Virus record (IMG/VR): IMGVR_UViG_3300021399_000100
Source: a virus
Lineage: Duplodnaviria; Caudoviricetes
DNA length: 64,000 nt
Reading direction: 5' to 3' (one strand)
This document shows, piece by piece, positions 6,782 to 45,654 of the stretch. Positions within the stretch are counted from its first letter, which is position 1; every line of letters starts with the position of its first letter. Below the pieces are notes generated by a model. That model had not been told where the DNA came from. It saw nothing but the letters and a program-made list of their open reading frames with translations, and searched no databases. The translations under genes and the position numbers were made by a program.

Positions 6782-6843
6782 TCCGTTCCACGAATGTAAA
6801 TGACGCAGTAAATAAATATATACATATAAGTAATATAACATTT

Positions 6844-9350: not shown

Positions 9351-10082
9351 ATGAAAGCAGTTATTTCTTTGAGTGGCGGATTGGATTCCACATGTTTGCT
9401 AATGCATCTATTAGCAAACGACTATGATGAAATTAGGGCTTATTCTTTTAATTACGGTCAGAAGCATGAGATCGAATTAAAGAAGGTTCAGAATAATATC
9501 AAGTTCTTGCAGGAGAAAGGTTTCAATGTTTCTCATCAAATCATCGATGTCCGAGATTGCTTCTCCGATTCTGCATCTTCTCTTCATAAAGGTGGTGAGG
9601 CTATTCCTGAAGGCCATTATGCATCAGAAAACATGAAGTCTACTGTAGTTGAGAACCGCAATGTAATATTCTCGTCTATCATTTATGGTAAGGCTCTAGG
9701 CTGGGCTAATAAGACACAAGATGATGTTAAGATCACATTAGGCGTCCACAGTGGGGATCATTTTATCTACCCAGACTGCCGGCCAGAGTCAGTCAATATG
9801 GCACGAGAGCTATTTAGAATCTCTAACGTAGGTAGCGAGAGAGTAGATTATATCTCTCCGTTCGTTAATATCGATAAGGGACAGGTATTGAAATCTGGCA
9901 TCGATGCTATGAAGACTTTGGGCTTTAACACAACAGAGATCGAAGGAGTTCTTGCAAATACGCACACATGCTACAACCCTAATGACAAAGGGGAGAGCTG
10001 TGGAAAGTGCGGAAGCTGTACGGAGCGACTAGAAGCATTTGCTGCTAATGGAATCAAAGATCCAATCGCATACCAGAAGTAA
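9351..10082 (+). CDS. queC: 7-cyano-7-deazaguanine (preQ0) synthase
   Basis: SLSGGLDST PP-loop, YGQKH, VENRN, YPDCRPE, zinc motif TCY...CGKCGSC. Confidence 0.95.
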   Translation: MKAVISLSGGLDSTCLLMHLLANDYDEIRAYSFNYGQKHEIELKKVQNNIKFLQEKGFNVSHQIIDVRDCFSDSASSLHKGGEAIPEGHYASENMKSTVVENRNVIFSSIIYGKALGWANKTQDDVKITLGVHSGDHFIYPDCRPESVNMARELFRISNVGSERVDYISPFVNIDKGQVLKSGIDAMKTLGFNTTEIEGVLANTHTCYNPNDKGESCGKCGSCTERLEAFAANGIKDPIAYQK

Positions 10083-10110
10083 ATCATTCTAAATCAATGC
10101 ATTATCTGTT

Positions 10111-10139
10111 GAGGCACATACTTTATGTGCCTCTTTTTT
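10111..10139 (+). terminator. Rho-independent terminator after queC
   Basis: gaggcacata/tatgtgcctc followed by T run. Confidence 0.75.
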
Positions 10140-10150
10140 GTAAATACAAT

Positions 10151-11992
10151 ATGAGTAAGAAAACAACAATAGATGTAGATGCTATATTTGAAAGGTATCA
10201 CTTTTTGGGTGATCCTTCAAATAAAAATGATGTATACACCTTCATGATGAAGGAGACCTCTAATGGGATGCTGAAGAAAGAGAACGTTTTCAAAGCATGC
10301 TTCCCTATATTATATAGTGACATTAGAAAAACGGATTGGGACGCATCATGGTCGTTCTCACAGATACTGTCGCACTATTTTGATCCTCATATAATCACAA
10401 CGTGCAGGACGTGCGGAGGAGCAGTTCCATATAGAAGCTTCAAGAAAGGATATGCACCGTATTGCAGCACTAAATGTGCAAATTCTAATGATGACAAGAA
10501 ATTGAAGACAGAGAACACCAATATCAGCAGATATGGTGTGAAGAATGTCTTTATGTCAGAGACAGTGAAAGAACAGAGTAAGAAGACATGCAATGAGAAA
10601 TATGGCCATGACTATGCCAGCCAGTCTAAAGACGTAAGAGACAAGATAACAGATACATGCACAGAAAGATACGGATGCTCTACACCATTTAGAATGGATG
10701 ATTTTCAAGAGAAGAGTAGAAAGACATGTATAACAAAATATGGGTGTGACTATCCTTCTCAAGCACAAGTATCTAAAGAAAAGGCTAGAAAGACATGCAA
10801 TGAGAAATATGGTGCATCTAATCCGTCTTATAGTCCAGATGTTATAGAAAAGCGTCGCGTTACTAATTTCAGCAAGTATAATGACAAATGGATTACTCAG
10901 ACTGAAGATTTCATAAGTGCGAACCATAATAAGTTTTTAGAAAGACACCCAGATATTATAAACGAAACTAAGGAAGCATATATAGTCAGATGCAATGATG
11001 AATGTTGTGACTTGTGTCATGACAAATGCTTTGAAATAGATAAAGAGACCTATAAGCAGAGATCTTCATCTAATATTATATTATGCCCTATCAAGAACCC
11101 TGTAGAAGGGACATCTTCATATGTGGAGAATGAGATAGCAGATTACATCCGAACTATATACGACGGAGAAATCATAACGTCAGATAGGTCCCTTATAGCA
11201 CCGAAAGAGATAGACATCTACATTCCAGAGAAAAAGCTTGCTATTGAATTTAACGGAGTGTTTTGGCATTCTGACTTCAATCCTAAGATGCATAAGAATT
11301 ATCATAGAGACAAATCTTTAGAATGCATGGCTAAAGGAGTCCATCTGCTGCATATATGGGAAGATGACTGGAATCTCAAGAAAAACATAATAAAAGACTA
11401 TATCAGATCCAAATTAGGCCTGTGTAGCAAGAGAGTATACGCTAGAAAGTGTCGTATTTGTGAAATAAACGCACATATAGCGCGAGATTTCATGGAAGCT
11501 AATCATATTCAGGGATATGCAAATTCAACGTATAAAATCGCGTTATATTACAATAATGAAATAGTATCTGTTATGCTGATAGGCAAGCTGAGAAATTCTA
11601 TGGGATCTGTTCCGAAAGAAGGATCATATGAAATATATAGACTAGCATCTTCTGCAGATACTGAAGTGTGCGGAGGATTTTCAAAGATGCTGGCATACTT
11701 CGAAAAGAAATATACCCCTAAAGAGATTATAACATATGGAGATCTATGCTATACATGGGGTAATGTATATAAGAAATGTGGATTCATTGAAGAACGCTTG
11801 TCCTCTCCTTGTTATTCATGGGTAGTAGGCAGACGCAGATATCATAGATCTAATTTTATGAAGAGCAAGCTGAAAGAATGTAGAGAAGACGACAGTCTTA
11901 CGGAAGATAACGTTATGCGTTCTAGAGGAGCCTATAAAATATGGGATGCTGGCAAGATTAGATTCGTCAAGTATTATAATATAAGTAAATAA
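10151..11992 (+). CDS. Hef/Vsr-like homing endonuclease-type protein with Zn finger, T-x3-KYG repeats and C-terminal Mom-like GNAT domain
   Basis: CRTC...YCSTKC; repeated TCxEKYG; EIDIYIPEKKLAIEFNGVFWH nuclease motif; NHIQG...EIYRLAS...GGFSKML...IITYGD...VYKKCGF; ATG 10151 after GTAAATA 10140. Confidence 0.7.
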   Translation: MSKKTTIDVDAIFERYHFLGDPSNKNDVYTFMMKETSNGMLKKENVFKACFPILYSDIRKTDWDASWSFSQILSHYFDPHIITTCRTCGGAVPYRSFKKGYAPYCSTKCANSNDDKKLKTENTNISRYGVKNVFMSETVKEQSKKTCNEKYGHDYASQSKDVRDKITDTCTERYGCSTPFRMDDFQEKSRKTCITKYGCDYPSQAQVSKEKARKTCNEKYGASNPSYSPDVIEKRRVTNFSKYNDKWITQTEDFISANHNKFLERHPDIINETKEAYIVRCNDECCDLCHDKCFEIDKETYKQRSSSNIILCPIKNPVEGTSSYVENEIADYIRTIYDGEIITSDRSLIAPKEIDIYIPEKKLAIEFNGVFWHSDFNPKMHKNYHRDKSLECMAKGVHLLHIWEDDWNLKKNIIKDYIRSKLGLCSKRVYARKCRICEINAHIARDFMEANHIQGYANSTYKIALYYNNEIVSVMLIGKLRNSMGSVPKEGSYEIYRLASSADTEVCGGFSKMLAYFEKKYTPKEIITYGDLCYTWGNVYKKCGFIEERLSSPCYSWVVGRRRYHRSNFMKSKLKECREDDSLTEDNVMRSRGAYKIWDAGKIRFVKYYNISK

Positions 11993-12137
11993 AAAGATAA
12001 ATATATCTTACAAAAGAAAGATGAATATTTCAACGATATTTATAATATGTATGACCATCGTTATTTTTTCGTTATTTTCTGCAGTAAGAATTTGAAAAAT
12101 TTAGTAAATTTATATCAAAGAATAATATAAACATAAT

Positions 12138-12728
12138 ATGAAAACATTTAAGCAGTTCATAAACGAAAGCGTGAGAAACTCTGGCGACACTATCGAAAAA
12201 ATGGTGGATTTTCTCAGAGTCCATTTAGAAGAGGAAGAGCTCTTCAAAGCGGATAGAATAGAGAAAATAGATGCTGAGGATTACTTAATATATACTCTAG
12301 ATAAGGATAAGTTTGAGAGACTTTCTGGTATACATTTAAACAACATCACGTTAGAAGACTTTACGACTGCAAAGCCTTATGACAGTAGACAAGATGTTCG
12401 TGATGGCAATGACGGTACTATAGAGATTGGGTTTCTCGATGCGCATGACAGCGGTAAATGGGGTATATTCCGTAAGTTTGAAAAGGAAGCAATTGAAAGT
12501 TCTTATAACGATTATATTTTAATCTTCATCTCAGATAAAAATACCAAACGCATTTCTGCTGTTGAATATGCTAAAAATACTTCTCGTTTTCGATTTAATA
12601 CAAACTTGGAAGAAATGGTAGATACGAAGGAATGTTTGACTACAAATAAAGATTTCATCGACCTTTATTATTCATATCACAATTCGTACCTTGCCAAGCC
12701 TGCAAAAGTTAATCCTCTTTACGTTTAA
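12138..12728 (+). CDS. Putative internal (capsid-packaged) protein, family A
   Basis: Starts MKTFKQFINES (cf. T4 CTS MKTYQEFIAE); paralog of both halves of 15113..16135. Confidence 0.6.
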   Translation: MKTFKQFINESVRNSGDTIEKMVDFLRVHLEEEELFKADRIEKIDAEDYLIYTLDKDKFERLSGIHLNNITLEDFTTAKPYDSRQDVRDGNDGTIEIGFLDAHDSGKWGIFRKFEKEAIESSYNDYILIFISDKNTKRISAVEYAKNTSRFRFNTNLEEMVDTKECLTTNKDFIDLYYSYHNSYLAKPAKVNPLYV

Positions 12729-12759
12729 CAAGAATATTACATACTAAAATTAATATAAT

Positions 12760-13314
12760 ATGAAACTATTCAAAGAATTCATAAGAGAGCAGCGTGTTAC
12801 TAAATTTGGTAACGTTTGCGAAAGTGTTATAACACCCAGTAAAGCGTTTATTTTCGATCAGAATCGTGGATACGAGGAACTCGATCGTCCGAAGAATAAT
12901 TATGTACTAGTAGGAACAGTCTGTGGTAAATTATCTGAGTTGTTTAACTTATTGTATAAACTAATAAATAAATATGACACTATATTAATGACCGATGTTA
13001 TATTTTGTGATGCAGGTGGTTCAAAAATTCAGATATGGGTAGATAAAGACACTATTGACGAACTTAAACATGCGGGAGGTGATATAGAAGAATATGCAGA
13101 AATGCGAGCTGCAGATATGATCGATGAGGCGACGTCTATGGTGGTAGACCTTTCATATGAAAAGGTCTGGGATATTTTAAATACATTTGAAGCAGCGAAC
13201 AAAGTTGGTCAAAATTGGTATGATTTTGAACATGCTTTTTGGGAGGAGATAGAAAACTTTTATGCATATGATGGAGGGGATTTTACGGGATTTTCAATAA
13301 TTAATAAAAAGTAA
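12760..13314 (+). CDS. Putative internal protein, family B
   Basis: Starts MKLFKEFIREQ; close paralog of 13973..14485. Confidence 0.6.
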   Translation: MKLFKEFIREQRVTKFGNVCESVITPSKAFIFDQNRGYEELDRPKNNYVLVGTVCGKLSELFNLLYKLINKYDTILMTDVIFCDAGGSKIQIWVDKDTIDELKHAGGDIEEYAEMRAADMIDEATSMVVDLSYEKVWDILNTFEAANKVGQNWYDFEHAFWEEIENFYAYDGGDFTGFSIINKK

Positions 13315-13343
13315 CGTTCGAATATATACAATATAAATAATAT

Positions 13344-13892
13344 ATGAAAACATTTGAACAGTTTATATGCGAAAGCAAAAATGAAGAATATCTTGAACAA
13401 CTTGATAAAATAGAAAAGATATACCAGTTTTTTGAAGGTCGTAATAAAGACTTCATTGAAAAATTAAACGTCACATATGATCGGAAAGAAACCATAGGCC
13501 GTCAGATGCATGAATTCTATGTGTATAAGTTAGATATGCATGCAGTTGAACGCTTTGCGCAGGTTAAGTTAAATACTATCAGTGATATCGCAGCTAAAGA
13601 TAAAAAACCATATAGAGGAAGACCTGTATGTATTTATAACTACAATAAAAAAACAGATACATTTGCAATTGGTTGCGGTGGCCTTTACTGGAATGATCGT
13701 AATCCTATTTGGGTAGTTATATTTAAATTCGAGAACGGTCACGTAAATGAAATAGAAATAGGGATAAACACTATGTTACTAGACGACGATGGTGTAGAAC
13801 CTACTGATTTGCAGGATTGGCATATTATAAATCAGTTCAACGATATATGGGTAACGTACGACGCTCGTAATCAATGGCTAAGAAAACTTTGA
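13344..13892 (+). CDS. Putative internal protein, family C (distant A homolog)
   Basis: Starts MKTFEQFICES; close paralog of 14525..15067. Confidence 0.6.
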   Translation: MKTFEQFICESKNEEYLEQLDKIEKIYQFFEGRNKDFIEKLNVTYDRKETIGRQMHEFYVYKLDMHAVERFAQVKLNTISDIAAKDKKPYRGRPVCIYNYNKKTDTFAIGCGGLYWNDRNPIWVVIFKFENGHVNEIEIGINTMLLDDDGVEPTDLQDWHIINQFNDIWVTYDARNQWLRKL

Positions 13893-13905
13893 TATAAGAC
13901 TTATA

Positions 13906-13946
13906 AATAAAAAGGATACATGAATGATTATGTATCCTTTTTTATT
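13906..13946. terminator. Bidirectional terminator between convergent paralog arrays
   Basis: aataaaaaggatacat / atgtatccttttttatt inverted repeat with A- and T-tracts. Confidence 0.8.
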
Positions 13947-13972
13947 AATGCATATTCGAACGTTACTTTTTA

Positions 13973-14485
13973 TTAATATCCACCGTCTGCATAAAGGTTT
14001 TCCATCTCATCCCAAAAATAAGACGTGTGATCATACCAATCTTGGCCAGCATCGTCTACTGCTTCAAATGTATTTATAATGTCCATGACAATTTCATATC
14101 TGCGGTCTTCTACCATAGGTGACACCTCATCTAGCATATCATCAGCTTGAGCACGAGCATTATCTTCTATATCATCCAAATTAGAAATCTCGTCGACTTC
14201 GTCTTTGTCTACCCATACCTGAATTTTTGAACCGCCCATATCACGAAATATAACATCATACATTAATATAGTGTCATATTTACTTATTAGTTTATACAGT
14301 GAGTTCAACAGCACAGATAGTTTACCAGTAACCGTTCCGACCAAGACATAATTATCCTTTGGGCCATCAAGTTCCTCGTAGCCTTGATTGATGATATACG
14401 CTTTACCTGGTTTTATAACACTTTCGAGGATGTTACTCTGTCTAGAGATATGTTGCTCTCTTATAAATTCTTTGAATAGTTTCAT
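13973..14485 (-). CDS. Putative internal protein, family B
   Basis: Starts MKLFKEFIREQ; paralog of 12760..13314. Confidence 0.6.
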   Translation of the reverse strand: MKLFKEFIREQHISRQSNILESVIKPGKAYIINQGYEELDGPKDNYVLVGTVTGKLSVLLNSLYKLISKYDTILMYDVIFRDMGGSKIQVWVDKDEVDEISNLDDIEDNARAQADDMLDEVSPMVEDRRYEIVMDIINTFEAVDDAGQDWYDHTSYFWDEMENLYADGGY

Positions 14486-14524
14486 ATTATATTTTATTTA
14501 TAAGTATTATATCAAATATTATTA

Positions 14525-15067
14525 TCAAGATATGACGTATGTCATCCATATGTCAGTGAATATACTTGTGATCCAATGCGAATGTAATTTTGTAGGCTCT
14601 ACATTAATTTCTGGTTTATCCAGTAACCACGAGTTTATCCCTATTTCTATTTCATTTACGTGACCGTCCTTGAATCTAAATATAACTACCCATACAGGAT
14701 TATCATCAAGCCATCCAAGACCACCCCCGCCTATCGTGTATGTATCTGCTTTTCTATCGTATTCAGATATACATACAGGTCTTCCTTCATATGGTGTTTC
14801 ATCTTTAGCAGCAGCAGCACTGATAGTATTTAATTCAACTTGCGCAAAGCGTTCAACTGCAGGCATATCTAACTTATACACATAGAATTCATCTCTACGA
14901 TAACCTATAGTTTCTTTCCTGTCATATGTGACGTTTAATTTTTCGATGTAGTCTGTATTCGTCTCACTTTTAAACAACGAGTATATCTTTTTTATTTTAT
15001 CAAGTTGTTCGAGATATTCTTCATTTTGAGATTTGCTTTCATTTATGAACTGCTTAAACGTTTTCAT
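14525..15067 (-). CDS. Putative internal protein, family C
   Basis: Starts MKTFKQFINES; paralog of 13344..13892. Confidence 0.6.
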   Translation of the reverse strand: MKTFKQFINESKSQNEEYLEQLDKIKKIYSLFKSETNTDYIEKLNVTYDRKETIGYRRDEFYVYKLDMPAVERFAQVELNTISAAAAKDETPYEGRPVCISEYDRKADTYTIGGGGLGWLDDNPVWVVIFRFKDGHVNEIEIGINSWLLDKPEINVEPTKLHSHWITSIFTDIWMTYVIS

Positions 15068-15112
15068 TTTTTCTTTTGATATTATATATTAACTTATTAA
15101 ACGAAAATATCA

Positions 15113-16135
15113 TTAACATCGACTAGGTTCATATCTGTTCCAAATGTCTTCAAAATCTTCATTTTTATCCAAATATGTACCTAACAAAGCCTCAGGTTCT
15201 GAATCTATGCGTTCTACGTTTATAGCATACTCGATATCATGAATAAAATTGTAATGATGTAAGGTGAAGATTATGATATAATCAACAACATCTCCTCCGT
15301 TATACGAGCGTGATACACCCCATTTAGTTTTATCAGGTCTATCTACCCAATCACACGTTATATCTCCACTGTTATCTGCAGTATAACCATTTTCAATCTT
15401 AACGTCGTCCGGAAGAACTTCGTACAAAGGTATACCTGATAGATTCTCAAACCTTTCCTTATTGAGCGTATATATCAAGAAACGACTTCCGTCAATTTCC
15501 TCGATCCTATCGGCCTTGAAGATCTTGTCAGATTTTGTGCTGTGACGAAGGAAATCATACATGTTTTTGATAATGTTGCACCCATCTTTTGATTTTGCCG
15601 GATACCAAAAATCAAAGCCACTGTTATAGAACTCGTCTAATTTTTTGAAATCTTTATTTGAATCGCAATATGTGCCTATTAGTGTATCAGGTTTTACACC
15701 ATCTAGACGTAAAACGTTTACAGCATACTCAATAGTAGAAACACGTTTAGTTTTTCTATCAATTATGAAGATTATGATAAATGCAGTATTCATTTTCGGA
15801 AAGCCATCGTAGAATACACCCCATTTAGTGTTATTGGACTTATCTAACCAATTATATGTTGTCATACTAGAACGATAACAATCTTCATTCGTAGCGTTTT
15901 TCAATGTGATGCTATTTAAAGATATGCCAGACCGTTTCTCAAACTCATCATTATCTAACGTATATACTAAGAAACGTCCGTTGTTGATTTCCTCTATTCT
16001 ATCAGCTTTGAGGAGCTTGTCTGTTTCCACTCTATCACGAAGAAAATCATACATTTTTTCGATAGCGGCACATCCGGTGACGTTTCCAGCAGGCTCACTT
16101 ACGCTTTCATTTATAAATTGTGTGAATGTCTTCAT
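15113..16135 (-). CDS. Putative internal protein, family A, tandem two-domain form
   Basis: Starts MKTFTQFINES; two copies of MYDFLR...KADRIEEI...FL.YTL domain; GTAAATA on - strand at 16162-16168. Confidence 0.6.
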   Translation of the reverse strand: MKTFTQFINESVSEPAGNVTGCAAIEKMYDFLRDRVETDKLLKADRIEEINNGRFLVYTLDNDEFEKRSGISLNSITLKNATNEDCYRSSMTTYNWLDKSNNTKWGVFYDGFPKMNTAFIIIFIIDRKTKRVSTIEYAVNVLRLDGVKPDTLIGTYCDSNKDFKKLDEFYNSGFDFWYPAKSKDGCNIIKNMYDFLRHSTKSDKIFKADRIEEIDGSRFLIYTLNKERFENLSGIPLYEVLPDDVKIENGYTADNSGDITCDWVDRPDKTKWGVSRSYNGGDVVDYIIIFTLHHYNFIHDIEYAINVERIDSEPEALLGTYLDKNEDFEDIWNRYEPSRC

Positions 16136-16188
16136 TTTTCTTTTAAGAGATATATTATCATTATTTACTATTCTTTATATAATTATAA

Positions 16189-17370
16189 TCACTTAGCTAT
16201 CGGTGTATATACCTGCTCATCATAATACCCTTTCTCGATAGCATTCCTAATCCAGTTGACTAGTTCGAAATTATATAATCCATATCTGGCATATGGAGTA
16301 TCTACGCCTACATCGAATCCGTTTCTCTTCATCTGTGCTCTTCCATGAATATGGCCGAACAGATAGAATTTAGTATCGTCTTCATGAGTATCTCCATATA
16401 TCGGCTTATGCCTGAGAGTATATGTGAAGCCTCCGTCTTCAATGGTAAGTTCATCTGTATCATAAATATAGACACCTTCCATTGTAGCCATCACAGGTAA
16501 TGTATATGAAGTATCGTTCTGTGGATTGTCTCCATATTCATAATTACCTTTAACTAAATGGAATTCTTTGAAATTCAATCCGTTAAGATATTCTGCCTTG
16601 TCACCGAAGTCACCTAAATGATACACTATATCATTCATTCGCACGGACTTGTTCCAGTTGGATATGATCTCTAAATCCATTTCCTGTACATTTGCAAATG
16701 GACGGCGTGACAGCGTCAGCGTGCGTTCTTGGCCGAAATGAGTATCAGACGTGATGAATTTGCGTCCGCCTATATTGAGATCAGCACATACTGCCTGTAT
16801 GACATCTTCTAGTGAATCATATACTTTCTGGCCAGCTTCTTCTAGCTTGATACGGATATATCTGTTAGCGTTCGAGGTACATTCTGGCGGCATTGCTACA
16901 AAGACACCTTTCTTCCCCATCCACATGCCTATCTCTACATTGGATGTGAATCCAGGAAGGGCTGCTGAACGGTCCAGCCAGAATATAATAGCGGACGCCC
17001 TTTTCATACCTTCGTTCTCCCAATCAGTCTGTATCTTGAGCTCATCTTTGTTCGTCTCGTCATACTTATCGTTGGTAGGATTGATAAGAGTGCCGTGGAA
17101 TTCTAACGAATCGAATATGTCGTATATCTTCTCTCTCCAATCAGTTTCTCTGTAATTGGATCTAGGGCAGGGACCTGCTAAAAATATGGCGTTCTTTGTA
17201 TTGCTGAGGTCTGTCCATTCACTCTTATCATTCTTAGGGTACAGAATAGTGCATTTGTGCTTCTTGGGGGTATTATGCTGTTCGTCGGAGGCTTTTCGTG
17301 TATTCATAATCATAGAGGGTATATTTCTCTCCATAGATATTTTAGAATAATGCCCGAATATGCTACTCAT
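16189..17370 (-). CDS. Fusion: nucleoside 2-deoxyribosyltransferase/N-glycosidase-like domain + calcineurin-like metallophosphoesterase
   Basis: IFLAGP...WRE...QTDWE...IIFW...FTSNVEIG; then SDTHFG, YHLGDF, KGNYE, FGHIHG. Confidence 0.8.
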   Translation of the reverse strand: MSSIFGHYSKISMERNIPSMIMNTRKASDEQHNTPKKHKCTILYPKNDKSEWTDLSNTKNAIFLAGPCPRSNYRETDWREKIYDIFDSLEFHGTLINPTNDKYDETNKDELKIQTDWENEGMKRASAIIFWLDRSAALPGFTSNVEIGMWMGKKGVFVAMPPECTSNANRYIRIKLEEAGQKVYDSLEDVIQAVCADLNIGGRKFITSDTHFGQERTLTLSRRPFANVQEMDLEIISNWNKSVRMNDIVYHLGDFGDKAEYLNGLNFKEFHLVKGNYEYGDNPQNDTSYTLPVMATMEGVYIYDTDELTIEDGGFTYTLRHKPIYGDTHEDDTKFYLFGHIHGRAQMKRNGFDVGVDTPYARYGLYNFELVNWIRNAIEKGYYDEQVYTPIAK

Positions 17371-17471
17371 GTTTATATTCAAATTTATATATGATATATA
17401 AATTTACATGTATGAGCAAACATTATAGAAATTATGTGATTATATAGTTATACATATATGTTATATTTTTT

Positions 17472-18140: not shown

Positions 18141-18146
18141 TTGCTT

Positions 18147-20192
18147 ATGAAATTTGAACAAATCAAATCAGAACTGAAAAAGGAATTCATCGGAATAGAT
18201 GAACAGATTGATAATATTATCGACCTTATTCGACCATGGTATAACAATCCCGACCTGTACGATTCTCCTTGCGTAATAAACTTATGGGGCATGACTGGAC
18301 ACGGAAAGACTAGCCTAGTCAATAGAATCATCGATATGCTGGGAGAAGGTCATAACAGAATGTATATGAACTGTCATTCTATGATTGACATGGATTTATA
18401 TTTCATGGAATCTTTCGTAGAAGATACTAGAACAAATAACAATACTAACAAGTTCATTATATTCGATGATTTCCAATACGTTAGAACAATTGACGAAGAT
18501 GGTAATGAACACAGCTCGTCTGCCCTTTCCATTATGTGGAACCTGATGGATACTGGAATCATTTCTAATAATTTCTATGCCAGTCATTTCAAGATTATCA
18601 ATAATATAAGAAATGTAATGAGTACTATAGATGATCCTGAAGCTATTATTGGGGGCGTGTTCGTAGATCCGAAGAAATATATTCCTGCCAAGTATTTCAT
18701 TAATCCACTTATTAGTCCGTTTGATGTAAAATCATACATGTGCGCTTCTAAAAAGAAGACTTCGAAAAAACAGAAGGATAAAGATCCATATGCCCCTGTA
18801 GATGATATAGAATTCTTCCTGGATAAAGAAACTCTAGATACTGTATGCTATATATGCCGTCAGCTAGATTTGCCTGATTGTGAAAGCCCTATAGAGTTTA
18901 TATCTAGCAGATCGTCGTGGGATGCCTTGCAATGGAAAGATTTCTTTGATGATCTGTATGCACGAATGAAGAAAGGTAAGAACATGGATTTCCATAATTC
19001 GTTGATATTCATAATAGGTAATCTTGATGAGGCGTTCTCTGGAATTGCAAAGGATGTGAATCCCGAGATGAGTGCAGATGCTGTACATGAAATTACTAGT
19101 AAGGTGAATATCGTTGATATCAAACAAGGTCTTCAGTGCAGATTTCGTAATGAGCAGATAGCACGTTTAGGTAATACTCATATCATATATCCTTCGTTGA
19201 GTGCTGACAGCTATGTTGCTATCATTAAAAAACATCTGGACGTATATACAACAAGAATCAAGGAAAAGATGGGCATAGAGCTCATTATAGACCCTACAGT
19301 AGTTCAGTGTATATACAATGAAGGTGTATTCCCTACACAAGGAGTACGTCCATTGTTTTCCACTATAAACGATATTGTCAAGTCAAATATCCCTAAAGCT
19401 ATTGATAAGATAACCTGCATCGATAAAGTGAAGTCTATGACTTGTAGATTCGATAAAGAATGTAAGTCAATAATAATCAATGCTTTAGATCTTGAAGGAG
19501 CGTCGTTATGCGACGAGGTCAGTATTCCTGTCACCTTGAGAGTAAGAGGTGCATATAAAGACACTACAGAAAATATAGCGAACACTAGTGTACACGAAAG
19601 CGGCCATTACATATTATATAAATACTTGACTGGATGTTCCCCTATCAAAGTTGTATCTCGATCGCTTGAGCAATCCTGCCTAGGCTATATGATGGAACAG
19701 TTTGACGACGGAGTACGCTCTAAGCATAGACATCTGAATGAGATGGTTGTATGTCTGGGAGGTTATGCCGCTGAGCAGCTAGTGTTCGGTATGGATTTCC
19801 AAAGCACAGGAGCTTCTTCAGATATAGAGAATGCGACGGCTATAGCTTCCAGCATGATTAACGAATATGGCTTGAGCGACTTGCCTATCTGCAGATCAGT
19901 CGTTAGTGATGTCAATAATGAAAAGACTGTCATCTTGACAGAAGAAGATCGGCGGGCCTATAATCGAGCGGTTTCTGCTGCAATTGCAAATGCCTTCAAT
20001 AAAGCAAAAATGTTGCTAACAGATAATGCAGTTCTGCATGCGTGCTTCAAAGATGCTTTCACTCGTCTCAATGCACAAGGTGAATTAACAGATAGTGATA
20101 TCAAAGAGATATCTGCAGAAATAGAAAAAGCCGAAGGGTACGCGCCTATATCTGGTACGTATTATGCGGACAAGCTCAAAGAATTTGTATAA
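18147..20192 (+). CDS. AAA+ ATPase fused to FtsH-type peptidase M41 domain, no transmembrane segment
   Basis: Walker A GMTGHGKT, Walker B IIFDDF, Clp-D2-like FRNEQIARLG and GVRPL; HESGH zinc motif, LGGYAAE, STGASSDI. Confidence 0.8.
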   Translation: MKFEQIKSELKKEFIGIDEQIDNIIDLIRPWYNNPDLYDSPCVINLWGMTGHGKTSLVNRIIDMLGEGHNRMYMNCHSMIDMDLYFMESFVEDTRTNNNTNKFIIFDDFQYVRTIDEDGNEHSSSALSIMWNLMDTGIISNNFYASHFKIINNIRNVMSTIDDPEAIIGGVFVDPKKYIPAKYFINPLISPFDVKSYMCASKKKTSKKQKDKDPYAPVDDIEFFLDKETLDTVCYICRQLDLPDCESPIEFISSRSSWDALQWKDFFDDLYARMKKGKNMDFHNSLIFIIGNLDEAFSGIAKDVNPEMSADAVHEITSKVNIVDIKQGLQCRFRNEQIARLGNTHIIYPSLSADSYVAIIKKHLDVYTTRIKEKMGIELIIDPTVVQCIYNEGVFPTQGVRPLFSTINDIVKSNIPKAIDKITCIDKVKSMTCRFDKECKSIIINALDLEGASLCDEVSIPVTLRVRGAYKDTTENIANTSVHESGHYILYKYLTGCSPIKVVSRSLEQSCLGYMMEQFDDGVRSKHRHLNEMVVCLGGYAAEQLVFGMDFQSTGASSDIENATAIASSMINEYGLSDLPICRSVVSDVNNEKTVILTEEDRRAYNRAVSAAIANAFNKAKMLLTDNAVLHACFKDAFTRLNAQGELTDSDIKEISAEIEKAEGYAPISGTYYADKLKEFV

Positions 20193-43779: not shown

Positions 43780-45519
43780 TTACCCCAAGTAAGGGAAGAT
43801 TGCTGCGAAGTCACTAGTTTCACCACTGACTTTCTGCAACTTCAAATCAAAGCCCAAATAAAGGGTTTCTGGATGCTGACCTGCTGCTGCGATAGCATAT
43901 CTAGATGTCATCGAAACGACATTCTGGCCGCCCATACCTTCACTTGGATAAGTGATTTGGTCAGCAAGGATGTAAGGCATGAACTTCAAGCCAGGGGACT
44001 GTTCAGTACCTACTGCACCAACCAAACATGAAGTAGAGTCGAAATCCAAATATGGATCAACGTACACCTTCAATCTACCCAGACTACCGATATTATAGAT
44101 AGCGTTGCTACCTGAAGCTGCAGCGAATGTTGTAACAGGAGTAGCCAAGAAAGTAGGCATATCCATAATTGCTGTACCGATACCTGCACCAACTACTACC
44201 CAATCAGCAGGGCTCACACGTGAACGAGTTGAAATGATATTTGATGCGAGGTTAAACTTAGCAACAACTTGCTTCTGAATAGTCAAGCTATTCTCGTGCA
44301 AATCACTCGAGATAACGATCTTAGCGTTGAAGCCGATAGAATCAGCATGCTTTTTACCCAAAGTATGAAGTGCCTTCAAGATATCAAAGTTGATACGCTG
44401 AGTGCATTCATTAGTCAAGATTGCGTTAATGAAGCCATAAGGGTCATAACCATAAGCGGTCATATCCTGGAACTGCTCACGAGTGATTTCACCTTGAATC
44501 TTAATGGTCTTAGCGTCAACTTTAGTTGAAGCCATCTCAAGCGATACCTTATTAGCAGGAGTAACCTCACCTTCAGATCTCAAATAAGGATTCAATGTCT
44601 TCAAGTTATACTGTGCAGCACCACGAGTACCGTCAGCAGTGTTGTAATCACCGTTAGAACCATATTTAGACACACCAGTGAAGAAAGGAACGAAGTCCTC
44701 GTATGTCTTAACAGTGTCGAAATATGAGATCTTAACCTTTACTGGATCAGCACCTATAGGTGTAATAGTTACTTCAACACCATCTGCATACTGATTGAAG
44801 ATGTTAGCAAAGGTAGAGCCTTCCTGTGTAGAATCACTTCCGAAGTTACCATTACGATAAGCCTCATTAGGATAAACGATCTCGAAGATAGGAGCCTTGT
44901 CATAGAATGACAGCAAACCTGTAAAGGTAACCTTGGCGCCCAATGATGTACCAAGTGCAACTGGGGTAGCATCTGCTCCTGTGCCTGGAATAGTGATAGT
45001 TGCTTCTACGCCCTTCAATGCTTCAAGGATCTCGTTTTTAGTCTTGGTAGTGTTACCTGCTATAGCAAGAGTAGCATCCCAATCGATGACACCTTTAACA
45101 AGACGTGGGTTCTTAGCAGAAGTATCCAAGCTTCCGAGGTTGCGGTTAGTTGCACCACCAGAGTAAACACCGTTTACATAAGGAAGAATGGTCAACGCTG
45201 TTGAGATAGGTACTGTTGGGAGCAAATCGAGCGCGATTGTCTGTGCTGCAATCGCCATTGCCATAGGCAATGTGCTCGATGGCATATCACCTGAACCAAA
45301 ATTACCGTCGTTAGTGATACCAGTGAAAGTTCCATCTGGGTTCGCAGAACCCTGTGGAAGCGTAGGATCACCCATTCCAGCGAAATTAGCGTCAGGATTC
45401 ATGTGCATATTACCCCATGATTCCAAAATAGACTTAGCATCCAAACCCTTGGTTGCTGCCTCGTTCAATGCATGAATAGATGCGAGCTTTTGCATCCATG
45501 CGTTTTTATTTTGCCTCAT
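43780..45519 (-). CDS. Major capsid protein (T4 gp23-like, HK97 fold)
   Basis: LPMAMAIAAQTIALDL.PTVP, T.EQFQD, L.NE...IN, KVYVDPY, PGL.FMPY, SRYA; leader with ALNE cleavage-like site; GTAAATA at 45590-45596(-). Confidence 0.85.
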   Translation of the reverse strand: MRQNKNAWMQKLASIHALNEAATKGLDAKSILESWGNMHMNPDANFAGMGDPTLPQGSANPDGTFTGITNDGNFGSGDMPSSTLPMAMAIAAQTIALDLLPTVPISTALTILPYVNGVYSGGATNRNLGSLDTSAKNPRLVKGVIDWDATLAIAGNTTKTKNEILEALKGVEATITIPGTGADATPVALGTSLGAKVTFTGLLSFYDKAPIFEIVYPNEAYRNGNFGSDSTQEGSTFANIFNQYADGVEVTITPIGADPVKVKISYFDTVKTYEDFVPFFTGVSKYGSNGDYNTADGTRGAAQYNLKTLNPYLRSEGEVTPANKVSLEMASTKVDAKTIKIQGEITREQFQDMTAYGYDPYGFINAILTNECTQRINFDILKALHTLGKKHADSIGFNAKIVISSDLHENSLTIQKQVVAKFNLASNIISTRSRVSPADWVVVGAGIGTAIMDMPTFLATPVTTFAAASGSNAIYNIGSLGRLKVYVDPYLDFDSTSCLVGAVGTEQSPGLKFMPYILADQITYPSEGMGGQNVVSMTSRYAIAAAGQHPETLYLGFDLKLQKVSGETSDFAAIFPYLG

Positions 45520-45654
45520 AAAAAATGATTGTATGGTTGTACCTCCTATTATTCCTCTGAAGGAGATACTGTATGAAATTATTATGTATTATTTACCCCT
45601 CAATAATAAACTATAACGCGTAAATAATAAAGAAATTTGTATTATTTTCATAAA

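Follow-up and report, generated by a model that had tools for sequence, protein, structure and literature searches.

A six-gene cassette with leaders resembling the T4 capsid targeting sequence in a cattle rumen phage: a candidate internal-protein locus

This report deals with six adjacent open reading frames (ORFs) at positions 12138-16135 of IMGVR_UViG_3300021399_000100, a phage from cattle rumen of which a stretch of 64 kb, hereafter the window, was analysed; all coordinates refer to it. The ORFs lie in two arms that converge on a terminator-like hairpin, and the intergenic gaps inside each arm measure 29-45 nt (Table 1). Each ORF starts with the peptide MK[TL]F..FI.E[SQ], whose Met1 lies 1-13 codons past the preceding stop. 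We consider it likely that the six genes form a T4-type internal-protein (IP) locus, the products of which would carry a capsid targeting sequence (CTS) and would be packaged, cleaved and ejected together with the DNA.

The original prediction, made from the DNA letters alone, had placed six ORFs with a shared leader at these positions, and both the ORFs and a motif scan agree with it. It had also described an inverted layout around a bidirectional terminator. The convergence on such a terminator was found: the hairpin gave folding z-scores of -4.65 and -4.78 on the two strands, and none of the shuffled sequences (0/200) equalled its fold. The arms do not mirror each other, because the order of transcription is A'A', C', B' in the minus arm and A, B, C in the plus arm.

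Table 1. Cassette genes, associated signals and capsid gene in the window (a slash in a leader marks the candidate cut)
Feature	Position	Strand	Description
Gene A	12138-12728	+	196 aa; leader MKTFKQFINE/S (12138-12167), then one A/C-type domain; mature pI 4.9
Gene B	12760-13314	+	184 aa; leader MKLFKEFIRE/Q, then B-type domain; pI 4.5
Gene C	13344-13892	+	182 aa; leader MKTFEQFICE/S, then A/C-type domain, C subtype; pI 5.6
Gene B'	13973-14485	-	170 aa; leader MKLFKEFIRE/Q, then B-type domain; pI 4.1
Gene C'	14525-15067	-	180 aa; leader MKTFKQFINE/S, then A/C-type domain, C subtype; pI 4.9
Gene A'A'	15113-16135	-	340 aa; leader MKTFTQFINE/S, then two tandem A-type domains; pI 4.9
Tandem domains of A'A'	N 15608-16105, C 15116-15607	-	
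Bidirectional intrinsic-terminator-like hairpin	13909-13942	both	15-bp stem, U-runs on either side; inverted repeat I25
GTAAATT	12104-12110	+	34 nt upstream of A; last base differs from canonical late-type GTAAATA
AGTAAATA	16162-16169	-	candidate late-type promoter motif, 33 nt upstream of A'A'
GTGATTATA	16184-16192	-	candidate early-type promoter motif, 57 nt upstream of A'A'
Major capsid protein, T4 Gp23 family	43780-45519	-	Pfam PF07068

The leader peptide

In a six-frame regex scan of the window, which included a relaxed version of the motif, the leader headed these six ORFs and no other sizeable ORF. The CTS of T4, MKTYQEFIAE, is cleaved once and is enough to load foreign proteins into the head (PMC8442874). 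For the T4 protein IPIII, residues 4 and 7 have been mapped to targeting and residues 8 and 10 to processing (PMC9026906). The cassette leader is identical to MKTYQEFIAE at positions 1, 2, 7, 8 and 10, and at position 4 it has F instead of Y. Sixteen copies of the leader are present in the window plus three related contigs, and M1, K2, F4, F7, I8 and E10 are invariant in all of them (16/16). The codons underneath vary synonymously (TTT/TTC, AAA/AAG, ACA/ACG, CAG/CAA, AAC/AAT and AGC/AGT). Since the residues are kept despite these changes, selection appears to act on the peptide and not on the DNA alone.

The residue following the candidate cut (P1') is S in the A and C types, and the B types have Q. 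Four of the proteins (A, C, C' and A'A') have a single [LI]xE[ASG] site, namely the one at the leader boundary (residue 10). The B family has an invariant second candidate cut, x-E21/S22, which has the form V-x-E21/S22 in gene B and reads NILE21/S22 in B' (NVCE/S and NILE/S in the family). Moreover, a distant member of the B family (P0015) is missing residues 11-21 and has S directly after FIRE. T4 propeptides comprise 10-19 residues (PMC9026906), and the B family may have a longer propeptide that is cut twice. Apart from the leader, the B and A/C families share no similarity and are unrelated. A reading of the leader as a signal peptide was rejected, because it contains no hydrophobic stretch. 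Likewise, cleavage of A'A' as a polyprotein was discarded because no conserved [LI]xE[ASG] site lies at its domain junction.

A degenerate DNA pattern for MKT[FY]x[EQ]FIxE was also searched in IMG/VR, where about one match would be expected by chance according to a rough estimate. At least 120 stretches (L010-L129) contained it. Among the matches listed, 132 of 135 sit at ORF starts, and the P1' residue is A or S in 64%. The tagged ORFs of 60 aa or longer number at least 123 and fall into at least 66 unrelated clusters. The tag is thus a portable address of wide occurrence. The tagged ORFs listed are mostly basic (78%, with a median isoelectric point (pI) of 10), and few of them contain Pfam domains, these being a cytidylyltransferase-like domain, DUF5661 and DUF6321.

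The cargo families and their variation among relatives

With the leaders removed, the bodies of the A and C types are homologous (hhalign 95.8%, E 8e-9, 154 columns), while the B bodies are unrelated to them (hhalign probability 0.2%). The halves of A'A' are 43% identical to each other, C and C' 68%, and B and B' 64%. The cassette therefore contains one domain five times and another twice, as had been proposed from the sequence, and the hhalign comparisons and pairwise identities bear this count out. An exhaustive profile search of 1.84 billion representatives revealed nine relatives of the A/C domain, all of the same lineage and every one leader-tagged; the B family has about ten relatives. 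Both families are confined to a few related rumen contigs. The six proteins had no match in Pfam, PHROGs or PADLOC scans, and profile searches of the PDB with the cargo proteins were empty. Among GenBank phages, neither A'A', B and C (tblastn) nor the locus (blastn) found a match, and no relatives of the cassette were detected in IMG/VR or in GTDB genomes. The IMG/VR contigs that matched the phosphoesterase neighbour of the cassette (L001-L006) belong to unrelated phages without the leader.

Structure prediction followed by Foldseek, a check that had accompanied the original prediction, yielded a searchable model for one of the two families. The AlphaFold2 (AF2) model of A has a predicted local distance difference test (pLDDT) score of 74.9 and a predicted template modelling (pTM) score of 0.76 and consists of an N-terminal helix, a beta-hairpin, a four-stranded sheet and a C-terminal helix. 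Foldseek returned nothing at E <= 0.001 for it from the PDB or BFVD, and the best Z of a wide VIA-align search was 4.3, which is under the usual noise level. The AF2 model of B (pLDDT 47.8) is too poor for fold comparison, and the ESM Atlas provided nothing usable on either protein. No similarity to IPI* was found among Pfam, PHROG or PDB-sequence matches, the fold comparison being limited to the A model. No conserved His or Cys motif of a catalytic type stands out in the cargo, which weakly suggests that it is a binding protein rather than an enzyme.

The locus was compared with three JGI metagenome contigs (L007, L008 and L009), whose flanks are 91-97% identical to the window at the nucleotide level. 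Three cassette arrangements were found. The window has A196, B and C in the plus arm and, from left to right on the plus strand, B', C' and A'A'340 in the minus arm. L007 carries AA376, B and a C gene with a nonsense mutation in the plus arm, and B' and C' in the minus arm, after which the contig ends. In L008/L009, the plus arm consists of A*180, B, AA375, a frameshifted C' and B', and the minus arm of C. Alleles are swapped at the cassette among the contigs, and two genes are pseudogenes (C in L007, C' in L008/L009).

Compared with L008, the window shows an inversion that runs from the start of C (13344) to that of A'A' (about 16135). The C gene of L008 consists of the upstream region and codons 1-11 of the window A'A' gene, followed by the body of the window C gene from codon 12, and the AA gene of L008 consists of the window B-C spacer followed by an AA-type body. 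Because upstream regions and leader codons are swapped in this way, both inversion crossovers must lie inside the leader of about 33 nt, the left one in the leader of C and the right one in that of A'A' (compared with L008/L009). Furthermore, B' of L007 has B-type codons 11-15, which points to gene conversion at the 5' end. The ratio of non-synonymous to synonymous substitution rates (dN/dS) is 0.21-0.70 in the cassette genes and 0.04-0.09 in six flanking genes, at similar dS. A comparison of locus variability and dN/dS among related phages had been suggested with the original prediction, and it shows both rearrangements and an elevated dN/dS. In T-even phages, the IP palette has been described as "highly diverse", with >30 variants at two hypervariable loci (PMC3012670, PMC2839356, PMC4122927).

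Phage context and expression signals

The capsid protein of the phage matches PF07068 with 86.1 bits (cut-off 24.4), and its N-terminus contains the candidate maturation sites ALNE/A (residue 20) and SILE/S (residue 33). Its best matches among GenBank phages are an uncultured phage (30%) and the Prevotella Lak phages and Tenacibaculum phage pT24 (about 27%). The window also encodes baseplate wedge and hub proteins, a topoisomerase II large subunit, the front half of a DNA polymerase, an exonuclease and an SbcC-like protein. The phage is a very distant member of the T4 superfamily. A Bacteroidota host is plausible; the Bacteroidales host mentioned with the original prediction is hinted at by the distant capsid similarity to phages of Prevotella and Tenacibaculum.

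Two short motifs stand at set distances upstream of gene starts, GTGATTATA before replication and nucleotide-metabolism genes and GTAAATA before capsid and baseplate genes. Copies of the motifs occur window-wide, e.g. at 261, 2333, 8007, 9314, 17436, 30788 and 34857 (+), and further copies, e.g. at 6808, 20271, 38135, 45620, 54328 and 59461 (+) and at 45596, 52549 and 54351 (-). Together the two look like an early/late promoter code at the level of consensus motifs. As a word, GTAAATA shows no over-representation. Of its 22 copies, however, 12 are sense-oriented and 8-90 nt upstream of gene starts (4.5% expected), which is a 12-fold enrichment; the motif precedes, among others, A'A' (at -33), the gene for the capsid protein and two baseplate operons. 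The GTAAATAAT core found before A'A' is also present upstream of the capsid gene. Eight of ten GTGATTATA copies are sense-oriented upstream of gene starts, one of them before A'A' and the other seven before replication, nucleotide-metabolism and other non-cassette genes. The right arm is therefore preceded by both motif types. The shorter word GTAAAT was tried as an over-represented word and rejected, since it is at chance level overall and carries information solely through where it stands with respect to gene starts.

It had been stated that GTAAATA flanks both arms. Two such copies exist, each within AGTAAATA (11984-11991 on the plus and 16162-16169 on the minus strand), and the right one fits the statement. 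The left one calls for a correction: the motif at 11985 shares bases with the stop codon of the homing endonuclease gene that precedes the cassette, 146 nt before A, and the motif nearest to A is the GTAAATT at 12104. The IP loci of T-even phages have been tied to early-promoter elements (PMC2839356).

Several neighbouring genes were recorded as well. The cassette is separated from queC by a homing-endonuclease-like gene of 631 aa (10097-11992; phrog_3339, DUF7487), which L008/L009 also have and of which most is deleted in L007. It is thus a mobile neighbour of the variable locus. QueC of L007 (L007:290-1483) contains a mini-intein of about 155 residues (Pfam Intein_splicing, Hint) that the window QueC (9351-10082) lacks. 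Directly downstream of the right arm, positions 16189-17382 (-) encode a fusion of a nucleoside 2-deoxyribosyltransferase-like domain and a calcineurin-like phosphoesterase, which is kept at 97% in the relatives (dN/dS 0.07). At 18141-20192 (+), a protein of 683 aa with weak PHROG matches to ATP-dependent protease is encoded, and its amino-acid identity in L008 is 98.8% (dN/dS 0.04).

A probable internal-protein locus and its alternatives

It is an established principle in T4 since the 1990s that a tag directs proteins into the capsid. Like the CTS-tagged IPs of T4, the cassette proteins have an N-terminal tag of ten residues with an aromatic residue at position 4, F7, I8, E10 and a small residue after it. 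In both cases, the tag is the sole common part of unrelated small proteins, the genes are non-essential, and the capsid is of the Gp23 type. The T4 IPs are highly basic (PMC8442874) and 8-20 kDa in size, whereas the mature cassette proteins are acidic (pI 4.1-5.6) and have 18-38 kDa. Moreover, the cassette bodies have no detectable similarity to IPI-III or Alt of T4, and the phage is very distant from T4.

We infer packaging, cleavage, ejection and an anti-defence function, and the proposed sequence of events is as follows. The first ten residues would act as the CTS and dock the newly made protein on the scaffolding core of the prohead. A prohead protease of the gp21 type would then cut behind Glu10, and proteins of the B family may undergo a second cut behind Glu21. 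Once mature, the proteins would remain inside the filled head and pass into the host along with the DNA. There, their job is likely to be immediate, non-essential and host-specific, for instance the blocking of a host defence. Recombination at the conserved leader codons would re-deal the cassette among related phages. A host-specific role, probably in anti-defence, fits the fast evolution, dispensability and expansion of paralogues.

IPI of T4 is an inhibitor of the nuclease GmrSD. The original prediction had likewise read the cassette products as packaged anti-defence proteins. The match to the T4 CTS, the portable tag, the Gp23-type capsid and the hypervariable locus fit the putative packaging. 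As to anti-defence, the proteins showed no similarity to IPI or to other families with such a function. As for the further suggestion that modified DNA is protected from type IV restriction, the link would be one of proximity, queC/DpdA genes being located near the cassette.

Several observations weigh against an IP locus. The acidity of the cargo contrasts not only with the T4 IPs but also with most of the tagged ORFs in IMG/VR, and no cargo function can be deduced from sequence or fold (Pfam, PHROG, PADLOC, PDB, Foldseek). Tenacibaculum phage pT24, Prevotella phage Lak-A1 and LR756500, the nearest relatives by capsid in GenBank, do not have the leader pattern in its exact form. The plus arm is without a canonical GTAAATA, the left arm having only the GTAAATT at -34. 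Finally, a prohead protease of the gp21 type is absent from the 64-kb window, which covers part of the genome; gp21 is a core gene of T4-related phages (PMC9026906).

The acidity bears directly on one alternative. Acidic cargo is atypical of injected IPs, and the scaffold proteins of T4 are acidic. The tag could therefore package proteins that serve head morphogenesis or DNA packing, like IPIII or the acidic core proteins of T4, rather than injected effectors, and loss of IPIII in T4 indeed slows head assembly (PMC9026906). Such a role is hard to reconcile with a copy number and gene content that vary between flanks 91-97% identical, with the pseudogenization of single copies and with a dN/dS 5-10 times that of the flanks. 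The bodies also have few internal sites of the cleavage type, unlike a scaffold that is degraded. We regard this explanation as unlikely.

A second alternative, which we think quite unlikely, denies that the leader is a capsid address at all. It would be an N-terminus spread by gene conversion that serves, for example, translation initiation in a host with weak Shine-Dalgarno signals or regulated stability, and the proteins would be ordinary cytoplasmic accessories. The upstream region and the leader are indeed kept as DNA among the copies (families D2 and I8-I12), and 5'-end gene conversion is visible in B' of L007 with its B-type codons 11-15. However, the conservation is at the peptide level with synonymously variable codons, the conserved positions coincide exactly with the mapped functional positions of the T4 CTS, the tag ends in a protease-type site (I-x-E/S), and the same peptide heads at least 66 unrelated ORF clusters in viral contigs.

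An IP locus also allows a bolder version, to which we give equally little credence: the cassette would encode two new acidic, head-delivered anti-defence families, possibly nucleic-acid mimics that guard the 7-deazaguanine-modified DNA of the phage as it enters the host, combined with a leader-anchored recombination switch, formed by the inverted-repeat layout, that re-deals which paralogues are expressed and loaded. The kind of system is already known; the two cargo families, their acidity and the inversion with both crossovers in the leader are newly described.

That the inverted layout is itself a switch, in which frequent flipping between inverted leader or paralogue repeats sets cargo behind the strong promoter region 16162-16192 and yields phase-variable sets, is very improbable: the junctions of the inversion between the window and L008/L009 both lie in leader codons, C and the AA gene have traded upstream regions with each other and both promoter-type motifs are on the right-hand side only, but solely fixed differences between separate metagenome contigs were seen, no invertase or site-specific recombinase is among the neighbouring genes and the crossovers lie in homologous leader sequence. 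An occasional inversion can be explained without a dedicated system, because phages of the T4 type recombine freely at short homologies.

For an IP locus, the closest comparison is with the IP loci of T-even phages. Papers that cite Repoila et al. 1994 and Comeau et al. 2007 on these hypervariable loci (PMC2839356, PMC4122927, PMC3012670) describe an IP palette that is thought to tune the host range. The cassette resembles these loci in being a small locus with a changing palette of CTS-tagged genes between close phages. It differs in that it consists of paralogues of two families only, in convergent arms, and in that the crossovers lie inside leader codons and not in promoter or stem-loop elements. 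A further comparison is with the PeSLs (Arbiol et al. 2010, PMC2839356; Comeau et al. 2014, PMC4122927), cassettes of promoter and terminator through which T4-like phages shuffle modules. There, too, short conserved sequences at gene boundaries serve as recombination points for swapping small accessory ORFs. However, PeSLs are non-coding units of an early promoter and a stem-loop that are able to form mini-circles, whereas the sequence shared in the cassette is a coding leader with an AT-rich upstream region, and the event is an inversion.

Although the capsid protein of this rumen phage reaches only about 27-30% identity with its best matches among GenBank phages, the ten-residue capsid address of T4 has survived in it nearly unaltered. 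Since the address is kept in so distant a phage, the tag may be used to find candidate injected proteins in uncultured gut and rumen phages. In the present case, it marks two orphan families as candidates for host takeover in the first minute of infection or for anti-defence. Moreover, the cassette provides a clean natural example of the exchange of cargo genes by recombination exactly at the tag.

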